Positions 110 through 24,914 of a stretch of DNA of 32,000 nt are shown piece by piece; positions within the stretch are counted from its first letter, which is position 1, and each line of letters starts with the position of its first letter. Where the stretch lies: positions 3,696 through 35,695 of the forward strand of contig JAHJIJ010000017.1 of assembly GCA_018823325.1 (NCBI GenBank). Reading direction: 5' to 3'. The notes under the pieces are model-generated. The model had not been told where the DNA came from and did not search any database. It was given only the letters and a program-made list of their open reading frames with translations. The DNA comes from Alphaproteobacteria bacterium (lineage in GTDB: Bacteria; Pseudomonadota; Alphaproteobacteria; Sphingomonadales; Sphingomonadaceae). The translations under genes and the position numbers were made by a program.

Positions 110-1462
110 ATGATTTCAGAAGTGCGTGGGGATCCGAGACTACTCACAGGTGTATCAAATCGATCGCCTGCAGAACTTGCCAAGTCCCACCCGATCGCTC
201 CCGTAGACATCGCTGACCTCGCACGCCTCTCACCTTCCGATCTCGCCTTTCTCTCCCGTGACTGGCCGCTTCTGGCGCGGCCCGAACAACTTCCGCCTGA
301 CGGAGACTGGCGCAGCTGGCTGATCCTCGGCGGGCGGGGATCGGGCAAGACCCGGGCCGGTGCCGAATGGGTGCAGGCTGAGGTGCTGGCGGCCGGCAAG
401 CGGACGGATCTGCGCATTGCGCTGGTGGCGGAGACGCTCGGCGATGCGCGTGAGGTGATGATCGACGGGGCCTCCGGGCTTGCGCGGATCGCAAGGCGGA
501 TGCGGCCGGAGGTGGAGATTTCGCGGCGACGGCTGGTATGGCCGAACGGGGCGATTGCCCAGATCTTTTCATCAGAGGATCCCGAAAGCCTGCGCGGGCC
601 GCAGTTTCATCTCGCCTGGTGCGACGAGCTCGCCAAATGGAAACATGCCGACGAGACCTTCGACATGCTGCAGTTTGCGCTGAGGCTGGGGGAGGCGCCG
701 CGCCAGGTGGTGACGACGACGCCGCGTCCGGTGCCGCTGTTGAAGCGGCTGATGGCGGATGAGGGAACGGCGCTGACCCGGATGGCGACCTCGGCCAATG
801 CGAGGCATCTGGCGCCCGGGTTCCTGGCGGCACTTTCTGCCCGTTATGGCGGGACAAGGCTGGGGCGCCAAGAGCTGGATGGCGAGCTGATCGAGGACCG
901 GGCGGACGGCTTGTGGAAGCGCGCGCGGCTCGACGAGATCGTGGTGAAATTGGCTGAGCCCTTGCGGCGCATCGTGGTTGCGGTCGATCCACCGGCCGGC
1001 GGGGCGACGGCCTGCTGCGGCATCGTGGTGGCCGGGCTGAAGGAGAATGGTCAGGCGGTTGTCTTGGCGGATTGTTCGGTCGAGGGAACAGGGCCGGCGG
1101 GCTGGGCGCGGGCGGTGGTCTCGGCCTACAGGCGCTTCGAGGCCGACCGGGTGGTGGCCGAGGTCAACCAGGGCGGCGACATGGTGCGCGCCGTGCTCGA
1201 GGGCATCGAGGCGCGGCTGCCGGTGACGACGGTGCGGGCGACGCGCGGCAAGTTTCTCCGCGCCGAGCCGGTGGCGGCTTTGTATGAGCAGGGGCGGGTG
1301 GTTCATGCCGGGCGGTTTGTCGAACTCGAGGACCAGATGTGTGATTTTGGCCCGGAGGGACTGTCGAACGGGCGCTCGCCGGACCGGCTGGATGCGCTGG
1401 TCTGGGCGCTGACGGCGCTGATGCTGGAGGGTGGCGGGGAGCCGCGGATCAGGGGGGTGTGA
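110..1462 (+). CDS. GTA/phage terminase large subunit (RcGTA g2-like)
   Basis: ORF open from 11 (TTG). P-loop-like 'LGGRGSGKTRAGAEW' and the overall layout fit a large terminase. First ATG is at 110. The first ~110 nt are AT-richer, so the true start (11-110) is uncertain. Confidence 0.9.
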   Translation: MISEVRGDPRLLTGVSNRSPAELAKSHPIAPVDIADLARLSPSDLAFLSRDWPLLARPEQLPPDGDWRSWLILGGRGSGKTRAGAEWVQAEVLAAGKRTDLRIALVAETLGDAREVMIDGASGLARIARRMRPEVEISRRRLVWPNGAIAQIFSSEDPESLRGPQFHLAWCDELAKWKHADETFDMLQFALRLGEAPRQVVTTTPRPVPLLKRLMADEGTALTRMATSANARHLAPGFLAALSARYGGTRLGRQELDGELIEDRADGLWKRARLDEIVVKLAEPLRRIVVAVDPPAGGATACCGIVVAGLKENGQAVVLADCSVEGTGPAGWARAVVSAYRRFEADRVVAEVNQGGDMVRAVLEGIEARLPVTTVRATRGKFLRAEPVAALYEQGRVVHAGRFVELEDQMCDFGPEGLSNGRSPDRLDALVWALTALMLEGGGEPRIRGV

Positions 1463-1472
1463 GGTGGGGCTA

Positions 1473-1727
1473 CCTCTCCCCTTTGTGGGAGAGGTTACAA
1501 AATCGAAGGCTTAGCCCGATCGAGGGCTAAACTTCAGATTTTGTTGGTGAGGGGATCGGTGATGATGGTGCCAATGGAACCGATCCCCTCACTTGCGAAA
1601 TCTGAAGTTTAGGCGGCTTACGCTCGCCTAAGCCTTCGATTTCGCTTTCTCCCCCACAAAGGGGGGAGAGGGAGCGAGGCATTGCGGCATCGACACCTCC
1701 CCCTGTGTTGGTGAGGGGATTGGTTTA
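1473..1727. repeat. RIME-like mosaic palindromic repeat, copy A1 (unit1, loop, inverted unit2, truncated unit)
   Basis: Nested hairpins (cctctcccc..gggagagg; cttagccc..gggctaa; ttaggcgg..cgcctaa). 'aatcgaaggcttagc...ctaaacttcagattt' pairs with 'aaatctgaagtttagg...cctaagccttcgattt'. The same units recur at 2170, 7076 and 24924. Confidence 0.85.
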
Positions 1728-1737
1728 GCTGGCACCC

Positions 1738-2094
1738 TCACTCCCCACCATTGCGCAGCTCCGACAGAATATGACGGCAGACATCGTCGAGATGCTGCAG
1801 GACCTCGTCGTTCCAGAAGCGCAGGATGCGGAAGCCTTCGCCGCGGAAGAGGGCGTCACGGTTAAGGTCGTGGAGGCTGTCGCCGTGCTGGCCGCCGTCG
1901 ACTTCGATGATCAGCCTGGCTTCGAAGCAGACGAAGTCGAGGATGTAGCCGCGCAGCGGAACCTGTCGGCGGAACTTGGCGCCGGCCAGCTGGCGGTCAC
2001 GGAGCGCGCCCCAGAGCATGGCTTCGGGTGTCGTCGGGTCGGTGCGCATCTGGCGCGCCCGGGCTCGAGCAAGGGGTTTTGGTTCGTGGCGCAT
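1738..2094 (-). CDS. DUF559 (Vsr-like fold) endonuclease-domain protein
   Basis: 118 aa. 'GYILDFVC...LIIEVDGGQH...RD..L...GFRILRFWNDEV' matches the DUF559 signature as I remember it. Confidence 0.8.
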   Translation of the reverse strand: MRHEPKPLARARARQMRTDPTTPEAMLWGALRDRQLAGAKFRRQVPLRGYILDFVCFEARLIIEVDGGQHGDSLHDLNRDALFRGEGFRILRFWNDEVLQHLDDVCRHILSELRNGGE

Positions 2095-2169
2095 GGGACT
2101 GGCCTGTTGGATTGGCTCAGTATGCGCCTTTGGGTTGTGGGGACAAGAGGTGTGGTGCTAACGGAACGG

Positions 2170-2375
2170 GTCCCCTCACCAGCAAAATCTGAGGTTTAGC
2201 CCTGATCGGGCTAAGCCCTCGATTTTGTAACCTTTCCCACAAGGGGGAGAGGTGTCGATGCGGCTGGCCCCGCGCTCCCTCTCCCCCTCTCGCCCCACTG
2301 TGGGGGAGAAAGCGAAATCGAAGGTTAGGCGAGCGAAAGCCGCCTAAACTTCAGATTTCGGAAGTGAGGGGATCC
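2170..2375. repeat. RIME-like mosaic repeat, copy A2 (unit1 and unit2 both reversed relative to A1)
   Basis: 'tcccctcaccagcaaaatctgaggtttagccctgatcgggctaagccctcgattttgtaacc...gggggagaaagcgaaatcgaaggttaggcgagcgaaagccgcctaaacttcagatttcggaagtgaggggatc'. Near-identical to copy A3 at 7076-7272. Confidence 0.85.
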
Positions 2376-2395
2376 GTTCCATTATCCACCACACG

Positions 2396-2424
2396 AAAAA
2401 AACCGGCGCCCTTTCGGACGCCGG
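2396..2424 (-). terminator. Rho-independent terminator of the small minus-strand ORF
   Basis: Minus strand reads CCGGCG-tccgaaaggg-CGCCGG followed by TTTTTTT. It lies 27 nt after the stop codon at 2451. Confidence 0.75.
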
Positions 2425-2450
2425 TTGATCACGCAATGCGGTGGGTAGGT

Positions 2451-2576
2451 TTACTTCGCAGCCGTTGCGGGGGCTGCCGGCTGGCGGACCTGGCGCCATT
2501 CGTTTTCGAGGCGCTGCAGGACATGGGCCGGGATCGTTGCCGGGGCGGCGGTCTTGGTCGAAGTGTTCGTCTGCAT
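2451..2576 (-). CDS. Small hypothetical protein, 41 aa (MQTNTSTKTAAPATIPAHVLQRLENEWRQVRQPAAPATAAK)
   Basis: Hand-translated; too short for the ORF track. Strong SD (gaggaggga) 4-5 nt upstream of the ATG, with the intrinsic terminator just downstream. Divergent from the GH19 gene. Confidence 0.45.
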   Translation of the reverse strand: MQTNTSTKTAAPATIPAHVLQRLENEWRQVRQPAAPATAAK

Positions 2577-2676
2577 GTCTTCCCTCCTCGGGTTTGGAAG
2601 TCTGGCCTCCAAACGTGTCTGTGGGCTGAAAGTTCCACAGCGTTAAACCTTTGTAAATATGAACGGAACGAGCTCT

Positions 2677-2703
2677 AAACGATTGAAATTTCTTCAATCG
2701 TTT
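2677..2703. promoter_or_regulatory. Perfect 11-bp inverted repeat (aaacgattgaa-N5-ttcaatcgttt) in an AT-rich divergent intergenic region
   Basis: Read directly. It lies between the small minus-strand ORF (start 2576) and the GH19 gene (start 2784). Could be an operator or a bidirectional hairpin. Confidence 0.4.
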
Positions 2704-2783
2704 TAATTCCGAACTTTTTTGCAGGCCGCAGCGCCCGATACGGCGTAGCCGGCAGCTTTCTTCCCGACATCGAGGATTTCATC

Positions 2784-3404
2784 ATGCGGATCGACCGGCG
2801 AATCGTCTTCGCGGGGCTGCGCAATGCCGTGTTCGGCGGGCGGCTTTCTCAAGGGCAGGTGGACGGCGTGGAGGCGGTGCTGACGCGGTTTTCGGCGCGC
2901 GGCTGGGGCGATCCGCGCTGGCTCGCCTATATGCTGGCGACCGCGCATCACGAGACCGGCGGCACCATGCAGGCGGTGCGCGAGACCTTTGCGCCTGACG
3001 ATGCGGAGGCCGTCAACCGGCTGGAACGGGCCTGGCGGGCGGGCTGGCTGCCGACGGTGACGACACCCTATTGGCGCCGCGATGCGGCGGGCCGCAGCTA
3101 TTATGGGCGGGGTCTTGTGCAGATCACCCATCGCGGGAATTACGCGAAGATGAGCCGCGTGACCGGGCTCGATCTCGTGGCCGAGCCGGATCTGGCGCTC
3201 AGGCTCGACGTATCCGCCACCATCCTGGTGGTTGGCATGACCGAGGGGCTGTTTTCGGGGCTAAGGCTTGCGGACTTCTTCTCAGGCACCAAGGCCGACT
3301 GGACGGGGGCGCGAAAGATTGTCAACGGCACCGACCGGGCGAAAAAGATCGCGGTGACGGCGCGGATCTTCGACGCGGCTGTCAGGGCGGGGCTCATGGT
3401 GTGA
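2784..3404 (+). CDS. Glycoside hydrolase family 19-like (chitinase/lysozyme fold) protein, putative endolysin
   Basis: 206 aa. 'LATAHHETGG' (catalytic Glu context), 'YYGRGLVQITHRGNY' and 'EPDL...' match the GH19 / phage GH19 endolysin core motifs. No signal peptide is evident. Confidence 0.75.
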   Translation: MRIDRRIVFAGLRNAVFGGRLSQGQVDGVEAVLTRFSARGWGDPRWLAYMLATAHHETGGTMQAVRETFAPDDAEAVNRLERAWRAGWLPTVTTPYWRRDAAGRSYYGRGLVQITHRGNYAKMSRVTGLDLVAEPDLALRLDVSATILVVGMTEGLFSGLRLADFFSGTKADWTGARKIVNGTDRAKKIAVTARIFDAAVRAGLMV

Positions 3405-3483
3405 GGCGGCCAAGCGGCGCATTGAGCGGAGGCCCGCGCGATGCTATCGGCTTTTGCGCTGCAATAGCTCTTCGAGGTGCCTC

Positions 3484-3789
3484 ATGATCCGCCACATCGT
3501 CTTCTTCACCGTCAGCCCCGAACATCTCGAGGCAGTGCGTTCGGGGCTATCGATCCTGACGGAGATCCCGAGTGCAACTCGGCTGGAGATCGGCACGAAT
3601 GTGAAGACCGACGGTTTTCACCGCAGCATCGATCTGGTCGTCTATGGCGAATTCGAGGATGAGGCGGCACTCGCTGCCTACAAGGCGCACCCGCTCTATG
3701 AGGAGAGCATCCGCCGGGTGAAGCCGCTGCGCGAGGAGCGCTATGCGGCGGACTATGTGGTGGGGGATGCGGTGACGGCGCGGGTGTGA
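3484..3789 (+). CDS. Dabb family (stress-responsive dimeric alpha-beta barrel) protein
   Basis: 'MIRHIVFFTV...' N-terminus, ~100 aa, '...AYKAHPLY...' is typical of Dabb domains. ATG at 3484 is preferred over the 3454 track start. Confidence 0.7.
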   Translation: MIRHIVFFTVSPEHLEAVRSGLSILTEIPSATRLEIGTNVKTDGFHRSIDLVVYGEFEDEAALAAYKAHPLYEESIRRVKPLREERYAADYVVGDAVTARV

Positions 3790-3793
3790 GGGC

Positions 3794-3907
3794 TCAGCGG
3801 CTCTGGCGCCGGCGCAGCAAGAGATAGAGACCGGCGAGGACCGATAAGCCGAGCAAGAAGAGACCGGCCTGGTTGAAAAAACCGCTAGTGGCAGTGATGT
3901 CCATCAT
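3794..3907 (-). CDS. Small hydrophobic protein, 37 aa (MMDITATSGFFNQAGLFLLGLSVLAGLYLLLRRRQSR)
   Basis: Hand-translated. SD gaggaag 5 nt upstream. One TM helix followed by a basic RRRQSR tail. Confidence 0.35.
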   Translation of the reverse strand: MMDITATSGFFNQAGLFLLGLSVLAGLYLLLRRRQSR

Positions 3908-3993
3908 GGTGCTTCCTCAAGGTCCGAGAGAAATGTTCGTGCCGGTAAGGGTGCTGCGCAGTTTTGCACGGGAACGGTCTGCTGACAAACCGT

Positions 3994-4026
3994 CCCGCTG
4001 CGGCACGAGACATGCGCCGCAGCGGG
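3994..4026 (-). terminator. 11-bp perfect stem hairpin downstream of the hydrolase gene
   Basis: cccgctgcggc-N11-gccgcagcggg, 10 nt after the stop at 4036. The U-tract on the minus strand is weak. Confidence 0.35.
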
Positions 4027-4035
4027 GCACCCAGT

Positions 4036-5010
4036 TCACATCTGCTTCTGCTCGACTTTGCTGAGATCCGGAGCATGGGCCTCAAGCGCAGCCATCGCGT
4101 CCGGCCAGCTCTTGGCGTCAATGTCGAGCGCAGTGCGGAGCCAGGCGAGTGTCATGCGCTGGGTAACAGTGAGGCGATCGGGGTCTTCATCGTCGGTTTC
4201 CTTTGCGTCATAGCCGGCAATGCCGCCGAGGCCGTGTTTTCCGCCAAAGAGGGTGAGCAGCGCTTCCGCCCCCGGGGCGTGGCGATAGGGGTCGACATGC
4301 CAGTCGGCGCCGCGCGGCGTCAGATGCGGATTGTCGTCGGCGTCACCGGCGACGACCAGGGTGCGGGTGGTCAGCGTCGAGAAATCCGGATTGAGGGTGG
4401 TGTAGTTCTTGCGGGCGTGATCGCTGAGGCTGTCGCCGCCGAGGCCGGGGGCGGCGAGAAGCACGCCGGCCTTGATGCGCGGTTCCGGACGGCGAATGCG
4501 GGTAACGGCCGGATCGGCGGTATCCGTGAGGCCCGCGCCGAGCAGCATGCCGACGGTCTGGCCGCCGAGCGAATGGCCGACGGCCGCGATCCGTGTGTGA
4601 TCGAGGCGGCCTGATAGCAGCGGCACGGCCTGTTCGATGGTGGCGAGACTGTCGAGGACCAGGGTAATGTCGTCGAGCCGCGACTGCCAGAAGAAGGGAT
4701 AGCCGGGCGCATCCTGGCCGAGGCCCGCAACCTTCGAATTGGCATGGGTCGGCTGGATGACGACGAAACCATGGGCGGCATAGAAATCGACGAGTGGGCC
4801 ATAGCCGTCCTTGGAGGGAATATAGAGCGATGGGCCGTGGCCATGCGAGAGAAGGATGACCGGCAGGCTGTCGCCGGAGAGCGGTGTGGTGATGCGCAGA
4901 TCGAGCGGGCGGCCTCGACCGGGCGCCGGCAGCGTGACCGGGTTGATGGTTATGGTGGCTTGCGGGGTCGGCGTCGGGATGGTGCGTGCTTTTGTGACGA
5001 GATCGTTCAT
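4036..5010 (-). CDS. Alpha/beta hydrolase (dienelactone-hydrolase/chlorophyllase-like)
   Basis: 324 aa. 'LLSHGHG' oxyanion region and 'GHSLGG' nucleophile elbow. SD ggagc upstream of the ATG. Confidence 0.8.
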   Translation of the reverse strand: MNDLVTKARTIPTPTPQATITINPVTLPAPGRGRPLDLRITTPLSGDSLPVILLSHGHGPSLYIPSKDGYGPLVDFYAAHGFVVIQPTHANSKVAGLGQDAPGYPFFWQSRLDDITLVLDSLATIEQAVPLLSGRLDHTRIAAVGHSLGGQTVGMLLGAGLTDTADPAVTRIRRPEPRIKAGVLLAAPGLGGDSLSDHARKNYTTLNPDFSTLTTRTLVVAGDADDNPHLTPRGADWHVDPYRHAPGAEALLTLFGGKHGLGGIAGYDAKETDDEDPDRLTVTQRMTLAWLRTALDIDAKSWPDAMAALEAHAPDLSKVEQKQM

Positions 5011-5063
5011 GGAATGAAGCTCCGGGCTCTGGAAATTGCGAGATGAAGGAGATAAGGATTAAG

Positions 5064-5078
5064 CGGAACGGTGTTCCG
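5064..5078. promoter_or_regulatory. Putative TetR operator 1 (CGGAAC-N3-GTTCCG)
   Basis: Perfect palindrome in the 147-bp divergent hydrolase/TetR intergenic region. Confidence 0.55.
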
Positions 5079-5094
5079 AATGTTGAGGTTATAT

Positions 5095-5111
5095 ACGGAA
5101 CGTCGTTCCGT
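5095..5111. promoter_or_regulatory. Putative TetR operator 2 (ACGGAAC-N3-GTTCCGT)
   Basis: Second perfect palindrome with the same core, 31 bp from the first. Confidence 0.55.
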
Positions 5112-5157
5112 TTAGCAAGGGCTGCGCGGGATTTCTCCGTGCGGCTGGAAACTGCGC

Positions 5158-5784
5158 ATGGATAAAGAGGCTGCAATGGACGGGGATCACGGACAGGAAG
5201 CAGGCGGACCGCGGGTGCGCGCCGATGCGCGGCGCAACGAGGATGCACTGCTGGAGGCGGCCAAGGCGATCTTTGCCGCAAGCGGCGTTGATGCGCCGGC
5301 GCGCGAGATCGCGGCACGCGCCGGAGTGGGTGTGGGCACACTCTACCGACGCTTTCCGAGCCGCGCGGATCTCGTCATCGCAGTGTTCAAGCGCGAGGTG
5401 GACGCCTGTACGGCGGAGGCGGTGGTGCTCGCATCAGGGCATCCGCCGGGCGAGGCGCTGGCGCTCTGGCTGCGCCGTTTCACCAGGTTCATTGCCGCCA
5501 AGCGTGGGCTGGCTCAGGCGCTGCATTCCGGCGATCCGGCCTTTCAGGCGCTGCCCGATTATTTCCGTCAGAATTTCGAACCGGCTTTAGCCGGGCTCCT
5601 GGACGCAGCTGTCGATGTCGGGGCCGTTCGTTCAGGCATTGAGCCCTACGAACTGCTGCGCGCCATCGGCAATCTCGCGGCGATCAAGGGCGCGGAGCCG
5701 GAGGGCGAGACATCAGTGATGGTCGAGCTGCTGATCGACGGACTGCGCTTAAGTGCGGGCAAGGTACCGCCGGCTGCAGGCTGA
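5158..5784 (+). CDS. TetR/AcrR family transcriptional regulator
   Basis: N-terminal HTH 'AREIAARAGVGVGTLYRRFPSRADL'. Divergent from the hydrolase gene. Confidence 0.85.
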   Translation: MDKEAAMDGDHGQEAGGPRVRADARRNEDALLEAAKAIFAASGVDAPAREIAARAGVGVGTLYRRFPSRADLVIAVFKREVDACTAEAVVLASGHPPGEALALWLRRFTRFIAAKRGLAQALHSGDPAFQALPDYFRQNFEPALAGLLDAAVDVGAVRSGIEPYELLRAIGNLAAIKGAEPEGETSVMVELLIDGLRLSAGKVPPAAG

Positions 5785-5879
5785 GGCCGGCGATCGCTTG
5801 CAAGAGACGGCATAGGCGGGGGCCGGGCCGATCGCGGCAGGCTGCCTGATCGATTTTCATTTCTGTCGAGGACATCCCC

Positions 5880-7052
5880 ATGAAACTTCCCTTCCGAATG
5901 CCCTGGGCGCAAGCCCGGGATCGAACCTCCGTGCCCGAGGAAAAGGCGCTTCATCCGCGACCCGGGACGGCGCTGGCGCTGATTGCGGGCGAGGGCGAGG
6001 CGCGGTGGACGGGCAGGTCCTATGCGGCACTTTCGCGCGAGGGGTTCATGAAGAACCCGGTCGCGCATCGCTGCGTGCGTTTGGTGTCAGAGGCGGCGGC
6101 CAGCATCGCGTTCCTCGCCTATAACAGCGAGACCGAGCGGCCGGAGCATCCCGCACTTGCTCTGCTGTCTCGGCCGAACGGGGCGATGACGGGGGCGGAT
6201 TTTCTCGAAACGCTGTATGGCCAGCTGCTGCTCTCGGGCAATGCCTATGTCGAGGCGGTGGCGGCCGGCGGACGCAGTGCGGAACGGGCGGTGGAGCTGC
6301 ATCTGCTGCGGCCCGACCGGGTGAGCGTGGTGACCGGGGCGGATGGCTGGCCGTCGGCCTATGACTATCGCGCCGGCACAAGCGCCAGGCGGATCGCGCT
6401 CGATGGTCTCCTGCATCTGAAGCTGTTTCATCCGCTCGACGACCACGAGGGGTTCGCGCCGCTGGCGGCAGCGCAGGTGGCACTCGATCTGCATAACGCG
6501 GCGGGGCGCTGGAACAAGGCGCTGCTCGACAATTCGGCCCGGCCTTCCGGCGCGCTGGTCTACCAGCCGAAGGAGGGCGGCAATCTCTCTGCCGACCAGT
6601 ATCAGCGGCTGAAGGTGGAGCTCGACGAGGGTTATTCCGGCCCGATGCGCGCCGGGCGGCCGCTTTTGCTTGAGGGCGGGCTCGACTGGAAGTCGATGGG
6701 GCTCTCGCCCAAGGATATGGATTTCGTCGAGGCCAAGAATGGCGCGTCGCGCGACATCGCGCTCGCCTTCGGCGTGCCGCCCATGCTGCTCGGCATTCCC
6801 GGCGACAACACCTATGCCAATTACCAGGAGGCGAACCGCGCCTTCTATCGGCTGACCGTGCTGCCGCTGGTGACACGGACCGGGGCGTCGCTTTCGGTGT
6901 TTCTGGGCGAGCTGACGGGCGAGGGGCTGCGGCTGGTGCCGGATCTCGATACGGTGGCGGGGCTTTCGGCCGAGCGCGATGCGCTCTGGGCGCGGGTGGG
7001 GGCGGCGGCGTTTTTGACGGACGAGGAGAAGCGCGAGGCGGTGGGGTATTGA
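5880..7052 (+). CDS. GTA/phage portal protein, HK97 family (RcGTA g3-like)
   Basis: 390 aa. 'GNAY.E...', 'DFVEAKN..SRDIALAFGVPPMLLGIPGDNTYANYQEANRAFY' is typical of HK97-type portals. Confidence 0.9.
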   Translation: MKLPFRMPWAQARDRTSVPEEKALHPRPGTALALIAGEGEARWTGRSYAALSREGFMKNPVAHRCVRLVSEAAASIAFLAYNSETERPEHPALALLSRPNGAMTGADFLETLYGQLLLSGNAYVEAVAAGGRSAERAVELHLLRPDRVSVVTGADGWPSAYDYRAGTSARRIALDGLLHLKLFHPLDDHEGFAPLAAAQVALDLHNAAGRWNKALLDNSARPSGALVYQPKEGGNLSADQYQRLKVELDEGYSGPMRAGRPLLLEGGLDWKSMGLSPKDMDFVEAKNGASRDIALAFGVPPMLLGIPGDNTYANYQEANRAFYRLTVLPLVTRTGASLSVFLGELTGEGLRLVPDLDTVAGLSAERDALWARVGAAAFLTDEEKREAVGY

Positions 7053-7075
7053 GGGCTTTGTTGTGCCAAAGCGCT

Positions 7076-16987: not shown

Positions 16988-16994
16988 GCGTCGG

Positions 16995-17869: not shown

Positions 17870-17873
17870 GTGC

Positions 17874-18523: not shown

Positions 18524-18532
18524 GACGGCTCC

Positions 18533-18563
18533 ATGTAGATGTTTTCCGCTTTCAATGTAGATG
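18533..18563. promoter_or_regulatory. Direct repeats atgtagatg x2 (22 bp centre to centre) just upstream of vapB
   Basis: Read directly. Minus strand: ATCTACAT-N14-ATCTACAT-ggagccgtc-ATG. Candidate VapBC autoregulatory operator. Confidence 0.45.
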
Positions 18564-18726
18564 GTCGTGGCCGGTTTTCCAAGGGGCGCCAGGCGCGCAG
18601 CCGTCCGGACTATCCGCGTGCGCTGCCGCCAAAGACAGATGTCGTCAGCCCTACAGATCACCGTTCAGGCGCCCGTCTGACATTTCTCTTTTCTTTTTCT
18701 TGCAGTTTTATCGAACGGAGCCCGTC

Positions 18727-19359
18727 ATGGCCTTTCACGAACAGCGTTTTCCGCTCCGTCTGTCGCTGTCCACGAGCGGCGGGCCGGGGCGGCAGACGGA
18801 TATCATTTCGCTTTCCAATGGTCGCGAGGCGCGCAATCGGCGCTGGCGGTTTTCCAGGCGCCGCTATGATGTCGGCACCGCAGTGCGCTCGGTCGCGGAT
18901 CTCTATGCCGTGCTGGAGTTCTTCGAGGCGCGGGGCGGGCAGCTGCACGGATTTCGCCTTCGCGACCCCGTCGATGGCTCGTCGGCCCGGCCTGGCGAGG
19001 CAGTGACGCCGCTCGATCAGTTGATTGGTACGGGAAACGGCGAGACTGCGGTGTTTCAGCTGGTGAAGGCCTATGGCGATGGCGCGGCGGTCGAGCGGCG
19101 TCCGGTGGTGAAGCCGGTGGCGGGATCGGTTCGGATTGCGCTTGACGGGGTGGAGCAGGCGGGCGGCTTTTCGGTCGATGCGGCGACGGGGACCGTCACC
19201 TTTGAACCCGGTTATGTGCCGGAGGAGGGCACCGAGATCCGGGCAGGCTTCGACTATGACGTGCCCGTTCGTTTCGACACCGACCGGATCGAGATCGATC
19301 TCGAAGCTTTCCGGGCCGGGCGCATTCCCTCCATTCCGCTGATCGAGGTGATCCCATGA
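18727..19359 (+). CDS. DUF2460 distal tail protein (RcGTA g12-like)
   Basis: 'FHEQRFP..LS.....GP.R.TDI..L.NG.E.RN..W..SRRRYD' N-terminus is characteristic of this family. Confidence 0.88.
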   Translation: MAFHEQRFPLRLSLSTSGGPGRQTDIISLSNGREARNRRWRFSRRRYDVGTAVRSVADLYAVLEFFEARGGQLHGFRLRDPVDGSSARPGEAVTPLDQLIGTGNGETAVFQLVKAYGDGAAVERRPVVKPVAGSVRIALDGVEQAGGFSVDAATGTVTFEPGYVPEEGTEIRAGFDYDVPVRFDTDRIEIDLEAFRAGRIPSIPLIEVIP

Positions 19360-20252
19360 AAAGGCTTCCTGCAGCGCTTGCCGCCCATGTCGCGACCGGC
19401 GAGACGACGCTGTGCCGCGCCTGGCGCGTCACCTGCCGGGACGGTTTTCGGCTCGGGTTCACCGAACATGACCAGCGGCTCGACTTCGCCGGCACGGTGT
19501 TCGAGCCGGGTACCGGCTTCTCAGCGACCGAGGCCAGTAGTGCAAGCGGTCTTGCAGCGCCCGGGGCCGAGGTGCGCGGTGGATTTTCGAGCGAGGCGAT
19601 TACCGAAGCCGATCTCGCAGCCGGGCGCTTTGACGGGGCGCGGGTCGAGTGTTTTTTGATCAACTGGCAGGCGCCGGAAGAGCAGCACGCGCTTGTTACG
19701 GTGCAGGAAATCGGCGAGGTGAGCCGCGCGGGGCCGGGGTTTTCGGCGGAGCTCCGCAGCTTTGCCCATCGCCTGCAGCAGTCGGAGGGGCGGATCTACA
19801 ACCGCCGCTGCGATGCGGATCTCGGCGATGACAGGTGCCGGGTGAACATGGACGTTGCGAACCGCCGGGTTATGGGCGTCGTTGCGGCAGTGTTGGCGGG
19901 GGACCGGCTGACGGTCTCTGGCCTGCCGGGTCTGGGCGAGGGGCATTTCCGGCTCGGGCATGTGAGGTTCGACGACGGGCCTCTGGCCGGCAAGCGGCTG
20001 GCCATCGAGGAGAGCAGTGCTGTGGTGGGTGGGCTGATGACGCTGAGGCTGTGGTTGCCGCTGGAGGCGCGGCCGGCCGAAGGGAATGCCGTGACGCTGA
20101 CGGTCGGCTGTGACAAGAGTTTTGCCACCTGTCGAGCAGTCTTCGGCAACCCGCTGAATTTTCGTGGCTTTCCGCACATGCCGGGCAGCGACTTTGCCTA
20201 TTCCTATGTCAGTGGCGATAGCACCCATGATGGCGGGGTGTTGTATCGGTGA
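19356..20252 (+). CDS. DUF2163 / BR0599-type tail hub protein (RcGTA g13-like)
   Basis: 'L..HVA.G.TTLCRAWRVT.RDG...GFT.HD..L.F.G..FEP'. C-terminal 'CDK.F.TC...F.N..NF.GFPH.PG.D'. ATGA coupling with g12. Confidence 0.88.
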   Translation: MKRLPAALAAHVATGETTLCRAWRVTCRDGFRLGFTEHDQRLDFAGTVFEPGTGFSATEASSASGLAAPGAEVRGGFSSEAITEADLAAGRFDGARVECFLINWQAPEEQHALVTVQEIGEVSRAGPGFSAELRSFAHRLQQSEGRIYNRRCDADLGDDRCRVNMDVANRRVMGVVAAVLAGDRLTVSGLPGLGEGHFRLGHVRFDDGPLAGKRLAIEESSAVVGGLMTLRLWLPLEARPAEGNAVTLTVGCDKSFATCRAVFGNPLNFRGFPHMPGSDFAYSYVSGDSTHDGGVLYR

Positions 20253-20261
20253 GGCTCGCTC

Positions 20262-20352
20262 TACCCTCCCCTTGAGGGGGAGGGCGGACAGGAGGTCCGG
20301 GGTGGGGTGAGCCTGGCTTGCTTCTCTTCGGTTCACCCCCACCCGCCGCTTC
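20262..20352. repeat. GC-rich hairpin repeat block B6
   Basis: Aligns with B3 ('accctccccttgagggggagggcggac..ggtccggggtggggtga', 'cacccccacccgccgc'). Confidence 0.75.
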
Positions 20353-20383
20353 CCGGTCATTACCTTCCCTCCGGAGCTTCCCC

Positions 20384-20899
20384 ATGTCCGTCAACACATC
20401 CGTCCTGGCGATTGCCGGGACCTGGATCGGCACGCCCTATCGGCATCAGGGATCGGTGAAGGGGGTGGGCTGCGACTGCCTGGGGCTTGTTCGCGGGATC
20501 TGGCGGGAACTCTATGGCAAAGAGCCCGAGGCCGTGCCGGCCTATGCGCCTGATTGGGCGGAGCGGGCGGGCGAGGAGCGGTTGATCGCGGCGGCCGGGC
20601 GGCATTTTCTGGCCGTGGCTTCCTTGGCGGAGAGCCGGCCGGGCGATCTCGTGCTGTTTCGCTTTCGGCCGCATCTGGCGGCGAAACATGCGGGCATTCT
20701 GGCCTGCATGGCTTGGGAAGGGGGCGGCTTTGACATGGACGCCGACGGGGCGCGGTTTCCGGCGGAATACGCTCCTAGTCAGCCGCCGCCCGACGCCTTC
20801 ATCCATGCCTATGAACAATCGGCGGTGACGTTGTCGGCGCTCGTGCCGGCCTGGCGGCGCAGGATTGCCGGCATCTACCGCTTCCCCGAAAGGATCTGA
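20384..20899 (+). CDS. NlpC/P60 cell-wall peptidase (RcGTA g14-like)
   Basis: 'WIGTPYRHQGSVKGVGCDCLGLVRGIWRELYG' (catalytic Cys) and 'AKHAGI...FIHAY' (His). Confidence 0.88.
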   Translation: MSVNTSVLAIAGTWIGTPYRHQGSVKGVGCDCLGLVRGIWRELYGKEPEAVPAYAPDWAERAGEERLIAAAGRHFLAVASLAESRPGDLVLFRFRPHLAAKHAGILACMAWEGGGFDMDADGARFPAEYAPSQPPPDAFIHAYEQSAVTLSALVPAWRRRIAGIYRFPERI

Positions 20900-20901
20900 A
20901 G

Positions 20902-23900
20902 ATGGCGACCATTCTTCTGCAGGCGGCGGGTGCTGCCCTCGGCTCCGTCTTCGGTCCGGTCGGAGCGGCGATCGGCCAGGCGGCCGGGGCGCTTGCCGGC
21001 AGCATGATCGATCGGAGCCTGCTGTCGGGCACCCGCGAAGTGAACGGTGCACGGCTGTCATCGGCGCGCATTTCAGGCGCCAGCGAAGGCACAGTCATTC
21101 CGCGGCTTTATGGCACCGCGCGGCTCGGCGGCACGCTGATCTGGGCGACGCGTTTCGAGGAAGAGACTGTGACCGAGCGTAGCGGCGGAAAATCCTCCGG
21201 CGGCACGCGCACCACGACCTATCGCTACTATGCCAATCTGGCTTTTGGGCTCTGCGAGGGGCCGATTGCGGGCGTGCGGCGGGTTTGGGCGGACGGGCGC
21301 GAGCTGGACACGACCGAAATCGAGATGCGCGTCTATCGCGGAACGGAAAGCCAGCCGGCCGATCCGCTGATTGCAGCCAAGCAAGGGGCGGCCAATGCGC
21401 CGGCCTATCGGGGGCTTGCCTATGTCGTCTTCGAGCGACTGCCGCTCGATGATTTCGGCAACCGCATTCCGCTGATCCAGTTTGAGGTGATCCGACCGGT
21501 CGGCGCGCTGGAGGAGAAGATCCGGGCGGTGACGATGATTCCCGGCGCGACCGAACACGGTTATGCGACGGTGAGGATCTCGGATGCGCCGAGCGAGGGC
21601 GCGAAACGCTGGCTGAACCGCACCACGCTTGTTGCGGCGACGGATTGGCAGGCCTCGCTGGACGAATTGCAGGCGCTTTGCCCTGATCTCGAAAGCGTGG
21701 CCCTGGTGGTGGCCTGGTTCGGCACGGATTTGAGGGCCGGCGACTGCCGGGTACTGCCGGGGGTGGAGGTCGGCTACCGCAACGAGGAGAGCCGGCCCTG
21801 GAGTGTCGCGGGGCTGGCGCGGGGCGATGCCTATGTGGTGTCGCGCCACAGCGGTGGTCCGGCCTATGGCGGCTCGCCGAGCGACGAGAGCGTCATCGAG
21901 GCGATCAGGGACATCAAGGCGCGCGGGCTGAAGGTGACGCTCTATCCCTTCGTGCTGATGGATATTCCCGCCGGCAACGGCCTGCCCGACCCCTATGGCG
22001 GCGCCGAGCAGGCGGCCTATCCCTGGCGCGGGCGGATCACGGCCTATCCTCCCGGAAGCGACAAGACGGCCTCGGCGCGGGCGCAGGTCTCCAGCTTCGT
22101 CTATCGCGGTGACGGCTATCGACGTCTCGTGCTGCATTATGCGGCGCTCGCCGCCGCTGTCGGCGGGGTCGACGCCTTTCTGCTGGGCTCGGAACTGCGC
22201 GGGCTGACCGCCCTGCGCGACGATGCCAACGCCTTTCCTTTCGTTGAGGCGCTGGTGGCGCTCGCCGGTGAAGTGCGCGGTCTGCTCGGCGGCGGGACGG
22301 CAATTTCCTATGGCGCCGACTGGACCGAGTATTTCGGCCATCAGCCGTCGGATGGCTCGGGCGATGTCTTCTTTCACCTCGATCCGCTCTGGGCGAGCCC
22401 TCACATCACGGCTATCGGGATCGACAACTATATGCCGCTCGCCGACTGGCGTGACGAGGATCTCGAGGCGGAGAGCCCCGATGGCTTCACCGGTGCCGAC
22501 GATGCCGAAGGTTTTGCCCGGACGCTGACATCGGGCGAGGGCTTCGACTGGTTTTATGCCAGCGAGGCAGACCGCAGGGCACGGGTGAGGACGCCGATCA
22601 CCGATGGCGCCTATGGCAAGCCCTGGGTCTTCAGGTTCAAGGACCTGAAATCCTGGTGGGAGAACCCCCATTTCAACCGGATCGGCGGCGTCGAGCAGGT
22701 GAGCCCGACGGCCTGGGTACCTGGCATGAAACCCTTCTGGATGACCGAAGTCGGTTGCGGAGCGGTCGACAAGGGAGCGAACCAGCCGAACATCTTCGTC
22801 GATGCCAAATCGGCCGAGAGCGGAAGGCCTCACTTCTCGGCGGGTGCGCGCAGCGACAGCCAACAGCGCCGGTTTCTGGAGGCCCATCTCGACCACTGGG
22901 CTGGCAGTCTCCTGCCGCCTGATATGGTCGATCCTTCGCATGTCTATGCCTGGACCTGGGATGCGCGGCCCTATCCGGCGTTTCCGCAGAACATGGCGCT
23001 CTGGGCAGATGGATCGAACTGGCGGACAGGGCATTGGTTGAACGGCCGCCTGGGTACGGCGACACTGGCCGACACGATTGCGGCGATCCTCAGGGATCAT
23101 GGCTTTGTCGATTTCGACGTGTCGGAAGTGGCAGGCGATCTCGGCGGCTATGTAAAAGGGGATCTGACCTCTGCGCGCGACCTGATCGAGCCCTTGCTCG
23201 ACCTCTTTCAGATCGACGTGATCGAGGACGCCGGAAGGTTGAAATTCCGCACCCGGCCGACGGCGAGCCTGGCTGCCCGCGAGATCACGGTCCTCGCCGA
23301 CATTGCCGATCGCCCCCTCTGGAGCGAGACGCGCGGCCATGACAGTGATTTCGCCTCCGAGGCGCTGGTGACCTTTTACGATCCGGCGGCGGATTATGTC
23401 GAGGCGAGCGTGCGCTCGCGCAAGGTGGAGGCGGCGACCGATCGGCAACTGGCCCGCGACCTGCCGGCGGCGATGCCGGAAGAGACTGCACTTGCGGCCG
23501 CCGAAGGCTGGCTGCGTGACAACCGGCTGGCGCGGCGCACGGTTCAGCTGGCGCTCGGGCCGCAGGAGATTGCGGTCGAACCGGGTGACGTGCTGCGCTT
23601 CCCCGATGGACCGGACGGGCGTTTTCTGGTGCAGGGCATCGAGGAGGGCTTCGAGCGTCGCCTGACGCTGAGGGCCTTTGCGGGCAAGGTCTCCGCACCC
23701 GTGCCGGTGGTTGAACCCGGACGGGTGGTCGACGGTGGCGGGGCGGCCGGCTTTGCGCCGGTCGTGCAGTTTCTCGATCTGCCGAGGCTGGAGAGTGCAA
23801 GCCATGCCGGTAACGCAAGCGTTGCGGCATATGGCCGACCCTGGCGGCGGCTTGCGGTATCGAGCTCTCCGGAAGCGGAGGGCTATCGGCTCAGGCTGAC

Positions 23901-24681
23901 GCTGGATCGGCCAGCGACCCTGGGACGGCTTCTGGAGCCGCTTGCCCCCGGACCTGTCGGGCGCTTCGATGGGGCGAATGCCCTTGTAGTCGAGGTGCTC
24001 GCCGGGGCCTTTGCATCCGCGAGCCGCATGGCTGTTCTCTCCGGTGCAAACCGGCTCGCGGTCCGGGCCAATACCGGCGGCTGGGAGGTCATCGGCTTTG
24101 TCGAAGCTGAGGAGATTGCGGTCGGACGCTTCCGGCTGACGGGCCTTTTGCGCGGGCTGGGAGGCACGGAGGACGCAGTCGTGGCTGGTGCCGCAGCCGG
24201 GGCCGAGGTCGTGGCTCTCGACGAAGCGGTCCGGCCGCTGGGGCTCGGGAATGCCGAACGCGGGGCCGCACAAAACTGGATCCTCGAGCCGATGGGGCTC
24301 GTGACCGAGATTTCGGGCCCGCATGTCTTTGCCGGCGGATTGCGGGCGGAGACGCCGCTTTCGCCGGTGCATGCGAAGGTGCAGCGGCGGGCCGCGGGCG
24401 ATCTCGCGATCACCTGGATCCGGCGCAGCCGCATCGAGGCCGATGCCTGGACAGACGGGGAGGTGCCGCTCGACGAGGCGGAGGAGCGCTACCGGCTGGA
24501 GATCCTTGATGGCGGCACCGTGCTTCGTGTGGCCGAGGTGACCGAGCCCGCCTGGACCTATGCCGCCGCCGATGAACTGGCAGATTTCGGCGCGCCGCAG
24601 ACGGCGCTTAGCCTCCGCATCCGCCAACTCGGACGGCTGGCCGCCGGCCTGCCGCTGGAGGCGGTGGTTCCCGTCGATTGA
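20902..24681 (+). CDS. GTA host-specificity / baseplate 'megatron' protein (RcGTA g15-like)
   Basis: 1259 aa. N-terminal Gly/Ala-rich TM-like segment. 'IPLIQFEV' and 'YPWRGRIT' blocks recalled from GTA TIM-barrel/phage-tail_3 family proteins. Terminal position in the cluster. Confidence 0.9.
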   Translation: MATILLQAAGAALGSVFGPVGAAIGQAAGALAGSMIDRSLLSGTREVNGARLSSARISGASEGTVIPRLYGTARLGGTLIWATRFEEETVTERSGGKSSGGTRTTTYRYYANLAFGLCEGPIAGVRRVWADGRELDTTEIEMRVYRGTESQPADPLIAAKQGAANAPAYRGLAYVVFERLPLDDFGNRIPLIQFEVIRPVGALEEKIRAVTMIPGATEHGYATVRISDAPSEGAKRWLNRTTLVAATDWQASLDELQALCPDLESVALVVAWFGTDLRAGDCRVLPGVEVGYRNEESRPWSVAGLARGDAYVVSRHSGGPAYGGSPSDESVIEAIRDIKARGLKVTLYPFVLMDIPAGNGLPDPYGGAEQAAYPWRGRITAYPPGSDKTASARAQVSSFVYRGDGYRRLVLHYAALAAAVGGVDAFLLGSELRGLTALRDDANAFPFVEALVALAGEVRGLLGGGTAISYGADWTEYFGHQPSDGSGDVFFHLDPLWASPHITAIGIDNYMPLADWRDEDLEAESPDGFTGADDAEGFARTLTSGEGFDWFYASEADRRARVRTPITDGAYGKPWVFRFKDLKSWWENPHFNRIGGVEQVSPTAWVPGMKPFWMTEVGCGAVDKGANQPNIFVDAKSAESGRPHFSAGARSDSQQRRFLEAHLDHWAGSLLPPDMVDPSHVYAWTWDARPYPAFPQNMALWADGSNWRTGHWLNGRLGTATLADTIAAILRDHGFVDFDVSEVAGDLGGYVKGDLTSARDLIEPLLDLFQIDVIEDAGRLKFRTRPTASLAAREITVLADIADRPLWSETRGHDSDFASEALVTFYDPAADYVEASVRSRKVEAATDRQLARDLPAAMPEETALAAAEGWLRDNRLARRTVQLALGPQEIAVEPGDVLRFPDGPDGRFLVQGIEEGFERRLTLRAFAGKVSAPVPVVEPGRVVDGGGAAGFAPVVQFLDLPRLESASHAGNASVAAYGRPWRRLAVSSSPEAEGYRLRLTLDRPATLGRLLEPLAPGPVGRFDGANALVVEVLAGAFASASRMAVLSGANRLAVRANTGGWEVIGFVEAEEIAVGRFRLTGLLRGLGGTEDAVVAGAAAGAEVVALDEAVRPLGLGNAERGAAQNWILEPMGLVTEISGPHVFAGGLRAETPLSPVHAKVQRRAAGDLAITWIRRSRIEADAWTDGEVPLDEAEERYRLEILDGGTVLRVAEVTEPAWTYAAADELADFGAPQTALSLRIRQLGRLAAGLPLEAVVPVD

Positions 24682-24704
24682 AAACCATTCAACAGGAGGA
24701 TGAC

Positions 24705-24914
24705 ATGCTGGAGATGAAACCCTGGTACCAGTCGAAGACCGTCTGGGGCGCCCTGATTGCGATCGCTGCCCCGCTTCTCGGCAGGGCCGGACTGGAGCTC
24801 GGCGGCGCCGAGCAGGCGGAAATCGCCGACGCACTGACGACGCTTGCCGGCACGGTCGGAGGGTTGCTGGCGCTTTATGGCAGACTGACGGCGACGAAGG
24901 GCGTGGGTGGGTGA
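24705..24914 (+). CDS. Small membrane protein, holin-like
   Basis: 69 aa. Strong SD aggagg 5 nt upstream. 'KPWYQSKTVWGALIAIAAPLLG' TM1 and 'LTTLAGTVGGLLALYG' TM2. Confidence 0.5.
   Translation: MLEMKPWYQSKTVWGALIAIAAPLLGRAGLELGGAEQAEIADALTTLAGTVGGLLALYGRLTATKGVGG

Follow-up and report, generated by a model that had tools for sequence, protein, structure and literature searches.

How can a gene cluster that is commonly pictured as one compact operon stand open to unrelated genes at fixed places while keeping its own genes whole? The question is raised by a gene transfer agent (GTA) cluster on contig JAHJIJ010000017.1 (assembly GCA_018823325.1), within a stretch of 32,000 nucleotides (nt) that is called “the window” here; all coordinates are those of the window, and its GC content is about 65%. 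The head-tail cluster of the Rhodobacter capsulatus type (RcGTA) is compact, about 14–15 kb long, and expressed as one operon, and it is in this compact form that RcGTA-type clusters are usually described and searched for. In the window, by contrast, genes g2 to g15 span about 24.6 kb, a distance that takes in eight expanded gaps, five units in antisense and numerous hairpins. Comparison with related bacteria points to an answer in two parts. The locus is probably an intact, vertically inherited RcGTA-type cluster at a fixed chromosomal site in the Rhizobiaceae. The explanation that best fits the whole, which is held to be likely, is that the content of its junctions falls into four layers: family-wide genes that probably serve the GTA, long-resident passengers, young cargo drawn from a mobile pool and differing between sister species, and repeats of a REP/RIME-like kind found genome-wide.

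The kind of element itself is well known and is not surprising in kind. What may be new is the expanded, modular architecture shared by a whole family, with permissive junctions at fixed places; the endolysin-type and holin-like genes conserved within it, the repeats in ten gaps and just beyond the cluster end, and the recurrent toxin-antitoxin cargo may be new as well. No description of junction cargo in the GTA clusters of Rhizobiaceae or Rhizobiales was found in the literature searched; older reviews of RcGTA-like clusters may show such gaps.

Comparison set and searches

One genome per species was scanned with the capsid protein, which yielded 80 loci (designated by L numbers), all from Rhizobiaceae or close neighbours. 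Every protein of the window was mapped onto these loci for junction lengths and gene presence. Occupancies are given below as fractions of the loci that hold both flanks of the junction concerned (e.g., 67, 72 or 74), or, after g15, of the 19 loci reaching that far. By capsid, the nearest of the 80 are those of Agrobacterium albertimagni AOL15 and Rhizobium rosettiformans W3, at 94% identity. Two further loci stand outside this set. L081 is the closest relative found: its genes have about 91% nucleotide identity to those of the window, its glycoside hydrolase family 19 (GH19) protein is 97% identical, and every difference in the alignment sits in repeat-filled gaps. L082, the metagenomic record MW091529.1, serves as a compact comparator. 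Genes were identified by profile searches against Pfam, NCBIfam and PHROGs, and their full length was checked by running the concatenated window proteins against the RcGTA chains of solved structures (PDB) with phmmer.

A complete and intact head-tail gene set

The structural genes are as follows (E-values and covered residues of the RcGTA chain are given where a chain was matched):

110–1462 (+): g2, large terminase (TerL); Pfam Terminase_6N and Terminase_6C, near full profiles
5880–7052 (+): g3, portal; Pfam Phage_portal 1.5e-85; RcGTA portal chain 18–389 of 396, E 1e-117
9001–9576 (+): g4, S78 prohead protease; Pfam
9573–10913 (+): g5, major capsid protein (HK97-type); Pfam; RcGTA capsid chain 58–385 of 386, E 1.6e-101
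11290–11859 (+): g6, adaptor (gp6-like connector); Pfam; Rcc01688 chain 5–173 of 197, E 4e-11
11862–12197 (+): g7, stopper or head completion protein; Pfam; Rcc01689 chain 4–108 of 112, E 9e-5
12521–12919 (+): g8, tail completion protein (DUF3168); Pfam Tail_completion_gp17 2.1e-18
15971–16378 (+): g9, tail tube; Pfam; RcGTA tail tube chain 1–137 of 137, E 6e-43
16353–16787 (+): g10, GTA-type tail assembly chaperone; Pfam
16784–16987 (+): g10.1, GTA-type tail assembly chaperone; Pfam
17161–17769 (+): g11, short tape measure; NCBIfam RcGTA_tape 2e-43; PHROG tape measure families
18727–19359 (+): g12, distal tail protein (DUF2460); Pfam; RcGTA chain 1–208 of 210, E 1e-61
19356–20252 (+): g13, hub (DUF2163-type); Pfam; RcGTA chain 3–296 of 296, E 6e-62
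20384–20899 (+): g14, phage NlpC/P60 peptidase; TIGR02219 4.7e-57
20902–24681 (+): g15, megatron; Pfam GTA_TIM, Phage-tail_3 and Rcc01698_C; Rcc01698 chain 1–1288 of 1304, E 4e-243

The RcGTA order g2–g15 is complete and colinear over 110–24681, and colinear also with the compact L082. For g8, g10, g10.1 and g14 the support comes from family models, with nearly the whole Pfam or NCBIfam profile covered, and g11 reaches 148.7 bits against the RcGTA_tape model, below its 220-bit cut-off. As the TerL frame runs on unbroken up to the left edge of the window, the true start of the gene is uncertain; ATG 110 is plausible. In L081 an unannotated open reading frame (ORF) of 157 residues lies upstream of TerL; g1 would lie to the left of the window. 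The resemblance to the R. capsulatus particle (PDB 6TBA and related entries) thus extends to gene order, strong chain matches, a short tape measure and vertical inheritance in the chromosome.

These genes are under strong purifying selection. The ratio of non-synonymous to synonymous divergence (dN/dS) is 0.03–0.25 at a synonymous divergence (dS) of 0.3–1.0, with 0.03–0.10 for g9 and 0.05–0.18 for TerL, whose protein is 91–96% identical in close relatives. The structural genes are intact in nearly all 80 species despite 25–30% protein divergence. Stop codons flagged in the dN/dS table come from merged high-scoring segments that run into repeat-filled, over-called N-termini: translation through repeats gives the ORFs of the protease, g6, g9, g11 and g14 long false N-terminal extensions. 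Two frames proposed as genes, 12176–12430 (+) and 17766–18128 (+), were rejected as shadow or low-complexity translations. The initial annotation had described a colinear, full-length RcGTA set without visible decay, and both statements are borne out, by the profiles and chain coverage for the first and by full length and dN/dS for the second.

Coupled blocks separated by permissive gaps

Four gaps take up most of the non-structural genes, and the intervals first proposed for them are exact or right to within a few bases. Their content and length in the window, with the lengths across the related loci in brackets, are:

1463–5879: TerL/portal gap, 4417 bp (median 1516 bp, range 467–4838); a DUF559 gene (−), a 41-residue gene (−) with its terminator, GH19, Dabb, a hydrolase gene (−) and a divergent TetR gene
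7053–9000: portal/protease gap, 1948 bp (median 1236 bp, range 65–5723); an AlkB-like dioxygenase gene and DUF6107
12920–15970: g8/g9 gap, 3051 bp (median 1308 bp, bimodal, range 36–5618); a low-GC piece, unique to the window, that carries two small ORFs; MNT-HEPN; an MFS gene in antisense
17770–18726: g11/g12 gap, 930 bp (median 144 bp, up to 2524); VapBC (−)

The capsid/g6, g7/g8, g10.1/g11 and g13/g14 gaps are also expanded, to a smaller extent. The same junctions are expanded in 80 of the 80 related loci, the window lying near the long end and being among the fullest versions. The initial view of the layout as unusual is therefore not sustained. Four junctions are tight in every locus: protease/capsid (the two genes overlap in the window, and the junction is overlapping or tight everywhere), g6/g7 (a gap of about 5 bp in all loci), g9/g10, and g12/g13 (overlapping in all loci). 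Since these remain constant while the other gaps are expanded family-wide, the cluster is best seen as a string of coupled blocks split by permissive gaps. In the Rhizobiaceae there are about nine of them: TerL; portal; protease-capsid; g6-g7; g8; g9-g10-g10.1, to which g11 may be added; g12-g13; g14; and g15. The distance from TerL to the start of g13 is 8.7 kb in the compact L082, whose proteins are 27–66% identical, vs. 19.2 kb in the window. The window thus differs from RcGTA in not being compact, in carrying non-structural genes and repeats in eight gaps, and in having GH19 inside the cluster and a holin-like gene at its end.

Are these the same inserted genes in all relatives, as a fixed ancestral layout would have it? 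In part they are: GH19 (63/67 loci), DUF6107 (72/74), the holin-like gene (18/19), the MFS gene (37/72) and Dabb (30/67) are ancestral or have long resided at their positions, and the other cargo is patchy. The cargo named at first (DUF559, GH19, the AlkB-like enzyme, MNT-HEPN and VapBC) is all present according to Pfam. That list was incomplete, as it missed Dabb, the hydrolase and TetR genes, DUF6107, the MFS gene, the 41-residue gene, the holin-like gene and the repeats. The picture of a cluster broken up by non-structural genes, several of which are of a selfish or mobile kind, does hold, VapBC and MNT-HEPN having nucleotide relatives on plasmids; it fails for GH19 and DUF6107, which are probably GTA components rather than cargo. 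A whole family keeps a functional-looking cluster at nearly twice the usual length, its permissive junctions staying at fixed places, and tools for detecting GTAs should allow for such an architecture.

Two side observations concern the layout. The Martelella outgroup loci (L074, L080) are nearly compact, with a TerL/portal gap of about 0.5 kb holding Dabb alone and a portal/protease gap of about 65 bp. They lack both GH19 and DUF6107, which may have entered, or been kept, only in the Rhizobiaceae proper. The g7/g8 spacer (12198–12520) measures about 290–320 bp in the clade of the window, and g7 and g8 overlap in more distant loci; it holds neither of the repeat families described below, L081 has a 78-residue gene call there, and the ORF of the window looks low in complexity.

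Family-wide genes that probably serve the agent

2451–2576 (−): conserved 41-residue gene (MQTNTSTKTAAPATIPAHVLQRLENEWRQVRQPAAPATAAK); alignment of 15 loci, with a gene call at the same place in L081
2596–2730: AT-rich divergent regulatory region upstream of GH19; alignment of 15 loci
2784–3404 (+): GH19 endolysin-like protein; Pfam Glyco_hydro_19; PHROG 181, endolysin, 1.9e-32
8172–8492 (+): DUF6107, small hydrophobic protein in the g3.5 position; Pfam DUF6107 2.5e-49
24705–24914 (+): holin-like small membrane protein of 69 residues; PHROG holin families, weak matches of 4.9e-6 to 6e-3

GH19 is on the plus strand in every one of the 63 loci that carry it, with a dN/dS of about 0.13. Full-length homologues occur in 316 phage records, including phages of Rhizobium, Sinorhizobium and Ruegeria and many of Acinetobacter; the best 120 homologue matches listed are all from Rhizobiaceae. 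The motifs HHETGG, with the first catalytic glutamate, and YYGRG..Q align to GH19 chitinase structures; in this alignment the second catalytic glutamate was not placed with confidence. No signal peptide or transmembrane segment was seen in the protein, which fits a cytoplasmic, holin-dependent endolysin. GH19 is thus probably part of the GTA, as its candidate lysis enzyme.

The region upstream of GH19 is near-invariant over the 15 aligned loci, some of which have a capsid identity of only 76%. It contains a CtrA-box-like TTAA-N7-TAAA, with half-sites that are kept and a spacer that varies across loci, and a perfect 11-N5-11 palindrome, AAACGATTGAA-N5-TTCAATCGTTT, at 2677–2703. This palindrome is single-copy in the window, absent from shuffled sequences and found upstream of GH19 in 14 loci; a second one was sought before the other blocks of the window and none was found. 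Because of this near-invariant region and its recurrent palindrome, GH19 is predicted to be separately regulated, from a promoter region of its own. The 41-residue gene, divergent from GH19, has a strong ribosome-binding site, is kept in at least 24 loci and is followed by an intrinsic terminator at 2426–2401 (an 11-bp stem and then a T run, from a terminator scan). The plus-strand frame orf2364–2678, once counted as cargo, was rejected as a shadow of this minus-strand gene and of the conserved regulatory region; its nominal dN/dS of 0.4–1.4, at low dS, speaks against coding.

DUF6107 lies between portal and protease in its 72 loci and has a dN/dS of about 0.08; no phage family in PHROGs matches it. 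L082 has a homologue between portal and protease that overlaps both, i.e., in the g3.5 position. By this position, rather than by likeness to rcc01685, DUF6107 is probably a core GTA part of the whole family. The holin-like gene directly follows g15. Its product has two moderately hydrophobic segments, neither of which passes a 19-residue Kyte-Doolittle test at 1.5, and the gene lies 21 kb from GH19; from its place and family matches it, too, is probably part of the GTA.

In R. capsulatus, the holin and endolysin genes are encoded at a locus separate from the head-tail cluster. Lysis there follows the classical holin-endolysin mechanism (PMC13236601), and Caulobacter crescentus has no holin or endolysin genes and relies on LypABC for GTA lysis (PMC13236601). 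The conserved GH19 and holin-like genes offer concrete lysis candidates in a group whose GTA activity is unexplored.

Passengers and younger cargo

1738–2094 (−): DUF559 (Vsr-like endonuclease fold); Pfam DUF559 1.8e-36; dN/dS about 0.10
3484–3789 (+): Dabb, stress-responsive alpha/beta barrel; Pfam Dabb 3.3e-20; dN/dS about 0.09
4036–5010 (−): alpha/beta hydrolase; Pfam; dN/dS about 0.14–0.16
5158–5784 (+): TetR regulator, divergent from the hydrolase; Pfam; dN/dS about 0.14–0.16
7364–7933 (+): AlkB-like 2-oxoglutarate-Fe(II) dioxygenase; Pfam 2OG-FeII_Oxy_2 1.8e-22; weak NCBIfam AlkB match
12920–13620 (+): piece of low GC content (about 58%), unique to the window; composition
14475–15695 (−): MFS transporter, antisense to the cluster; Pfam MFS_1; dN/dS about 0.15

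Two of these genes have been in place for a long time. Dabb, found also in the Martelella outgroup, is an old resident of the TerL/portal gap. The MFS gene, on the minus strand every time and with a clade-structured distribution, is a long-resident passenger of the g8/g9 gap.

The variable cargo (the AlkB-like gene, DUF559, the hydrolase and TetR genes, MNT-HEPN and VapBC) occurs mainly in the clade of the window, and is patchy within it. DUF559 is present in 6/67 loci, four in this clade and two, of the Ciceribacter type, where it lies elsewhere in the gap. It is bracketed by two inverted family-A repeats, and L007 and L009, which lack the gene, carry a single repeat at that place; L081 lacks the gene too, and relatives without it have either one repeat or other repeats at this point. 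DUF559 with its repeats looks like a small mobile or recombination-prone cassette, for which a search of plasmids returned weak partial matches at most. The hydrolase and TetR genes are found in 4/67 loci, plus L004 and L081, and were seen only in L002, L003, L004, L006, L008 and L081. Between them, at 5085–5140, lie the palindromes CGGAACGGTGTTCCG and CGGAACGTCGTTCCG, which are probably TetR operators (predicted operator CGGAACGNNGTTCCG); the two genes and these sites would make up a self-contained cassette. The AlkB-like gene, with an uncertain start codon (7307–7400) and a dN/dS of 0.2–0.36, is present in 11/74 loci, two of them outside the clade of the window (L019, L037). The low-GC piece contains two ORFs, 13080–13364 (94 residues, with a signal-peptide-like N-terminus) and 13377–13604 (75 residues), and had no match in the 80 loci, the plasmid records or Pfam; it is counted with the young cargo.

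Old and variable alike, the junction genes are also under purifying selection: dN/dS is 0.08–0.16 for GH19, Dabb, DUF6107, MFS, DUF559, hydrolase, TetR, MNT and HEPN, and somewhat higher for VapB and AlkB. The dS to one and the same relative varies several-fold along the cluster (against L001, 0.18 for HEPN, 0.14 for VapB, 0.67 for MNT and 0.55 for g13), which suggests mosaic recombination tracts, short genes making the estimate noisy.

Palindromic repeats

Two repeat families, A and B, fill ten gaps within the cluster, the g7/g8 gap being free of them, as well as the cluster end. Their positions, listed without strand, are:

1472–1722: family-A repeat after the TerL stop; fold −80 to −84 kcal/mol, z −6.7 to −9.8
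2166–2383: family-A repeat, inverted relative to 1472–1722; inverted pairs 94–95% complementary; fold z −4.7
7074–7297: family-A repeat after the portal stop; fold z −5.4 to −6.6
8569–8921: family-B array in the DUF6107/protease gap, from the repeat families
10952–11257: family-B array in the capsid/g6 gap; 158 nt are 87% identical to 8665–8822
15777–15896: family-B repeats in the MFS/g9 gap; fold z −2.3
16988–17090: family-B repeats in the g10.1/g11 gap; fold z −4.1
17807–17863: family-B repeat in the g11/g12 gap, in all close relatives with or without VapBC
20260–20367: family-B repeats in the g13/g14 gap, from the repeat families
24917–25140: family-A repeat closing the cluster; 95% identical to 1564–1674; fold z −5

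The repeats fold well below shuffled controls (z down to −9.8), and family B also matches many plasmids of Sinorhizobium, Rhizobium and Shinella. A scan of the whole window against Rfam, at gathering thresholds, gave no match, so the repeats are not a curated RNA family. They resemble the RIME and REP/BIME repeats in being short, GC-rich, strongly palindromic, multi-copy, intergenic and mosaic; for RIME1 and RIME2 the likeness is one of description.

Toxin-antitoxin modules in the junctions

13671–14039 (+): MNT; Pfam NTP_transf_2; motif YGSRARGD..DWD (GSxxxGD..DxD)
14029–14478 (+): HEPN; Pfam HEPN; motif RAERRDSH (Rx6H)
17874–18278 (−): VapC PIN toxin, antisense to the cluster; Pfam PIN 4.7e-16; residues D4, E, D and D in the sequence
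18278–18523 (−): VapB antitoxin, antisense to the cluster; Pfam PSK_trans_fac (Rv0623-like) 1.2e-17

The MNT and HEPN genes overlap by 11 nt and, by domains, motifs and overlap, are predicted to form a MntA-HepT-like toxin-antitoxin pair. The pair occurs in 4/72 loci, only L001, L008, L010 and L011, and has 69% nucleotide identity to modules so annotated on Rhizobiaceae plasmids. The last base of vapB is the first base of vapC (position 18278), and domains, residues and gene order mark VapBC as a putative type II module. It is found in 5/67 loci (only L001, L002, L004, L006 and L008), with 76% nucleotide identity to modules annotated VapC/VapB on pRi-type and other Rhizobiaceae plasmids. In L003, the g11/g12 gap (L003:17361–17672) has no VapBC and keeps a stretch of about 50 nt that matches the 3′-end of vapC exactly; this remnant shows that the “empty” site there is a secondary deletion.

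To what extent do such modules recur? A Pfam census covered those ORFs in the junctions of the 80 loci (376 kb of junction DNA) that have no match among the window proteins:

TerL/portal: Fic/DOC in 5 loci; TumE in 1
portal/protease: ParE with ribbon-helix-helix partners in 14 loci (14/74); other content PAP2-family genes (in 10), oxidoreductases and others
g8/g9: TacA with GNAT in 4 loci; HepT-like in 1; other content a sulfatase, regulators and transporters
g11/g12: no toxin-antitoxin module; other content PhzF, an insertion sequence element, NUDIX, an RTX protein and others

With MNT-HEPN and VapBC of the window included, the junctions hold at least seven kinds of toxin-antitoxin module. 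No toxin-antitoxin family at all was found among 150 ORFs of 75–200 residues in 209 kb of non-GTA flank from the same loci. Were the seven kinds independent events, the chance of all falling in junctions would be about 0.045 (binomial). The enrichment is suggestive but not strong.

How the insertions may be tolerated

How could a cluster with hairpins, terminators and antisense genes in its path be expressed? In C. crescentus, three GC-rich repeats of 150 bp with internal inverted repeats act as a terminator in the GTA cluster, and RNA polymerase modified by GafZ reads through them (PMC11150451). Homologues of gafA were reported from 94% of GTA-bearing alphaproteobacteria, the representative gafA accession and the other genes in the table of that study being from one genome series (PMC9765227). 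Tolerance of the insertions is most plausibly due to antitermination of this GafA/GafYZ type. With a processive antiterminator, RNA polymerase would pass hairpins, terminators and antisense genes alike, each block would start its own translation, and hairpin repeats and inserted genes would be tolerated as a consequence, only those junctions being used at which translational coupling is not needed. Cargo would accumulate in the junctions as rarely transcribed safe harbours, the conserved flanking genes acting as homology arms for recombination into them. The likeness to C. crescentus lies in GC-rich repeats with inverted repeats inside the cluster, directly after an early gene. There are differences, however: the repeats of the window are genome-wide REP-like families found in ten gaps plus the end rather than in one, whole genes are inserted as well, and antitermination, reported there, is proposed here; C. 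crescentus also has LypABC in place of a holin and endolysin. The repeats, terminator-like hairpins and antisense genes of the window offer a natural test of how far GafA/GafYZ-type antitermination reaches.

Several points weigh against this account of the locus. Five junction units (DUF559, the 41-residue gene, the hydrolase, the MFS gene and VapBC) are antisense to the cluster and could cause transcriptional collisions, which antitermination does not obviously solve. GH19 has a promoter region of its own, and simple read-through therefore does not account for the entire locus. A part in lysis is ascribed to GH19 and to the holin-like gene by homology only, with a weak match in the latter case (E 5e-6). 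The flank sample used as a control for toxin-antitoxin modules is small, the loci are related by descent, and the figure of about 0.045 depends on some seven events; in L081 a RelB/ParE pair lies in the flank, upstream of TerL by about 7 kb.

The first two of these points would find a natural place in a regulon of separately promoted blocks (GH19, portal, protease-capsid, g6-g7, g9-g11, g12-g13 and g14-g15), each with GafA- or CtrA-dependent promoters, between which insertions would be neutral. The conserved region upstream of GH19, with its palindrome and CtrA-box-like site, fits such a scheme, as do the antisense genes and strong hairpins between blocks, and GafY is known to activate about 18 accessory promoters in C. 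crescentus (PMC11150451). However, the other blocks showed neither a common motif nor a sigma-70-like promoter in their upstream sequence, a sigma-70 scan of the window finding no more sites than in shuffled sequence; the GH19 palindrome is unique in the window; and in the short segments between the repeats and the blocks, nothing besides ribosome-binding sites stands out as conserved. Clear evidence of a separate promoter is confined to GH19, and such promoters could also act in addition to antitermination. This alternative is accordingly regarded as doubtful, if the most serious one, and antitermination across permissive junctions is preferred.

Are the modules tied to gene transfer?

Toxin-antitoxin modules stabilise chromosomal islands and superintegrons, where they act against deletion. 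By analogy the modules of the window, with other selfish cargo, might be functionally tied to the GTA, either as anti-deletion devices for an altruistic lysis locus or as effectors switched by induction, antisense read-through depleting the antitoxin. The likeness is real in that several modules lie here, too, inside a multi-gene locus that looks dispensable. At least seven kinds recur at the same junctions with none in the flank sample, VapBC is antisense to GTA transcription, some members of the family (L027, L075) have undergone large deletions in the tail genes, and an immune-type system controls GTA lysis in Caulobacter (PMC13236601). Against this, the modules are each restricted to few species (VapBC 5/67, MNT-HEPN 4/72, ParE 14/74), most intact clusters have none of those present in the window, and L003 deleted VapBC with its cluster still intact; unlike in islands and superintegrons, modules of the window type turn up sporadically, and clusters across species do not depend on them to stay intact. 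Their types also differ by junction and clade, as opportunistic insertion predicts, and a conserved endolysin/holin-type pair is already present for lysis. A functional tie is therefore improbable.

The initial annotation had raised a stabilising or lysis-linked role for the toxin-antitoxin modules. Recurrence at the junctions is confirmed, with at least seven kinds across the family and none among the 150 flank ORFs. The role itself is unsupported: VapBC and MNT-HEPN are each present in only 4–5 of about 70 loci, clusters free of modules are equally intact, and the loss of VapBC in L003 did the cluster no harm. The simplest reading is that the modules are hitchhikers rather than stabilisers, since each is sporadic, module-free clusters are intact and one module has been cleanly lost.

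What would follow if the modules were coupled after all? The Rhizobiaceae GTA cluster would then be an open platform, its junctions being preferred landing sites, accessible to recombination, for selfish modules coupled to GTA induction, a view with little in its favour at present. Antiterminated read-through, antisense into vapBC, MFS and DUF559 and sense into MNT-HEPN, would tip the balance of toxin and antitoxin only in the small subpopulation of GTA producers; alternatively, embedded modules would penalise deletion of the altruistic lysis locus. Under the same rather unlikely assumption of coupling, GTA lysis in the family would moreover be organised in a third way, with GH19 under its own palindromic operator in the head module and a holin-like gene after g15. 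Either way, the recurrence of modules bears on an open question, namely whether they merely come to rest in quiet DNA or help to retain cooperative loci that are costly.

Chromosomal setting

Could the cluster be a silenced or decaying remnant, collecting insertions, antisense genes and terminator-like repeats since its genes are no longer co-expressed? It is about 10 kb longer than a compact one, hairpins and antisense genes do lie in the path of transcription, and the literature found reports no gene transfer for the group. Two relatives have lost tail genes: in L027 the capsid gene is followed by a partial g15, the tail genes between being gone, and in L075 g6 leads directly to the response regulator gene downstream of the cluster. 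Decay by deletion thus occurs in the family, with none in the window. Opposed to decay are the full length of all structural genes, their strong purifying selection at dS values up to about 1, their integrity in nearly all 80 species in spite of the protein divergence given above, and the preservation of tight junctions that permit translational coupling. A remnant is thus very unlikely, and the intact, vertically inherited cluster remains the favoured interpretation.

A complete or defective prophage with morons, to which toxin-antitoxin modules between structural genes and phage-type GH19 endolysins and holins would be typical, can be practically dismissed, since domain searches of the window, and of the 7.7 kb upstream in L081, turned up no genes for an integrase, for replication or for lysogeny, the chromosomal neighbours are the same across genera and in the outgroup, the tree of the cluster is clade-structured as a host tree would be, and the RcGTA-specific g12–g15 and short tape measure are present. 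The parallel with phage morons and prophage defence hotspots is nevertheless instructive: autonomous genes, often on the opposite strand and often toxin-antitoxin modules, sit at a few fixed positions and vary between close relatives. The carrier in the window is by contrast non-mobile, domesticated and vertically inherited, and the cargo cannot spread with a virus genome; its turnover must hence go by chromosomal recombination, insertion and deletion.

Downstream of the cluster (25577–32000) lie genes for an OmpR-type response regulator, a histidine kinase, a small lipoprotein, CcmI (a TPR protein), CcmE and CcmF. The flank from the response regulator through the kinase, lipoprotein and CcmI to CcmE is the same in 11 of the 11 loci extending past g15, outgroup included. 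CcmE and the TPR protein CcmI thus lie a few kb downstream of the GTA cluster in the window. In a study of codon usage, ccmE and a TPR protein were among 14 families co-varying with GTA genes (PMC9765227), and this co-variation and their proximity to the cluster may be connected.

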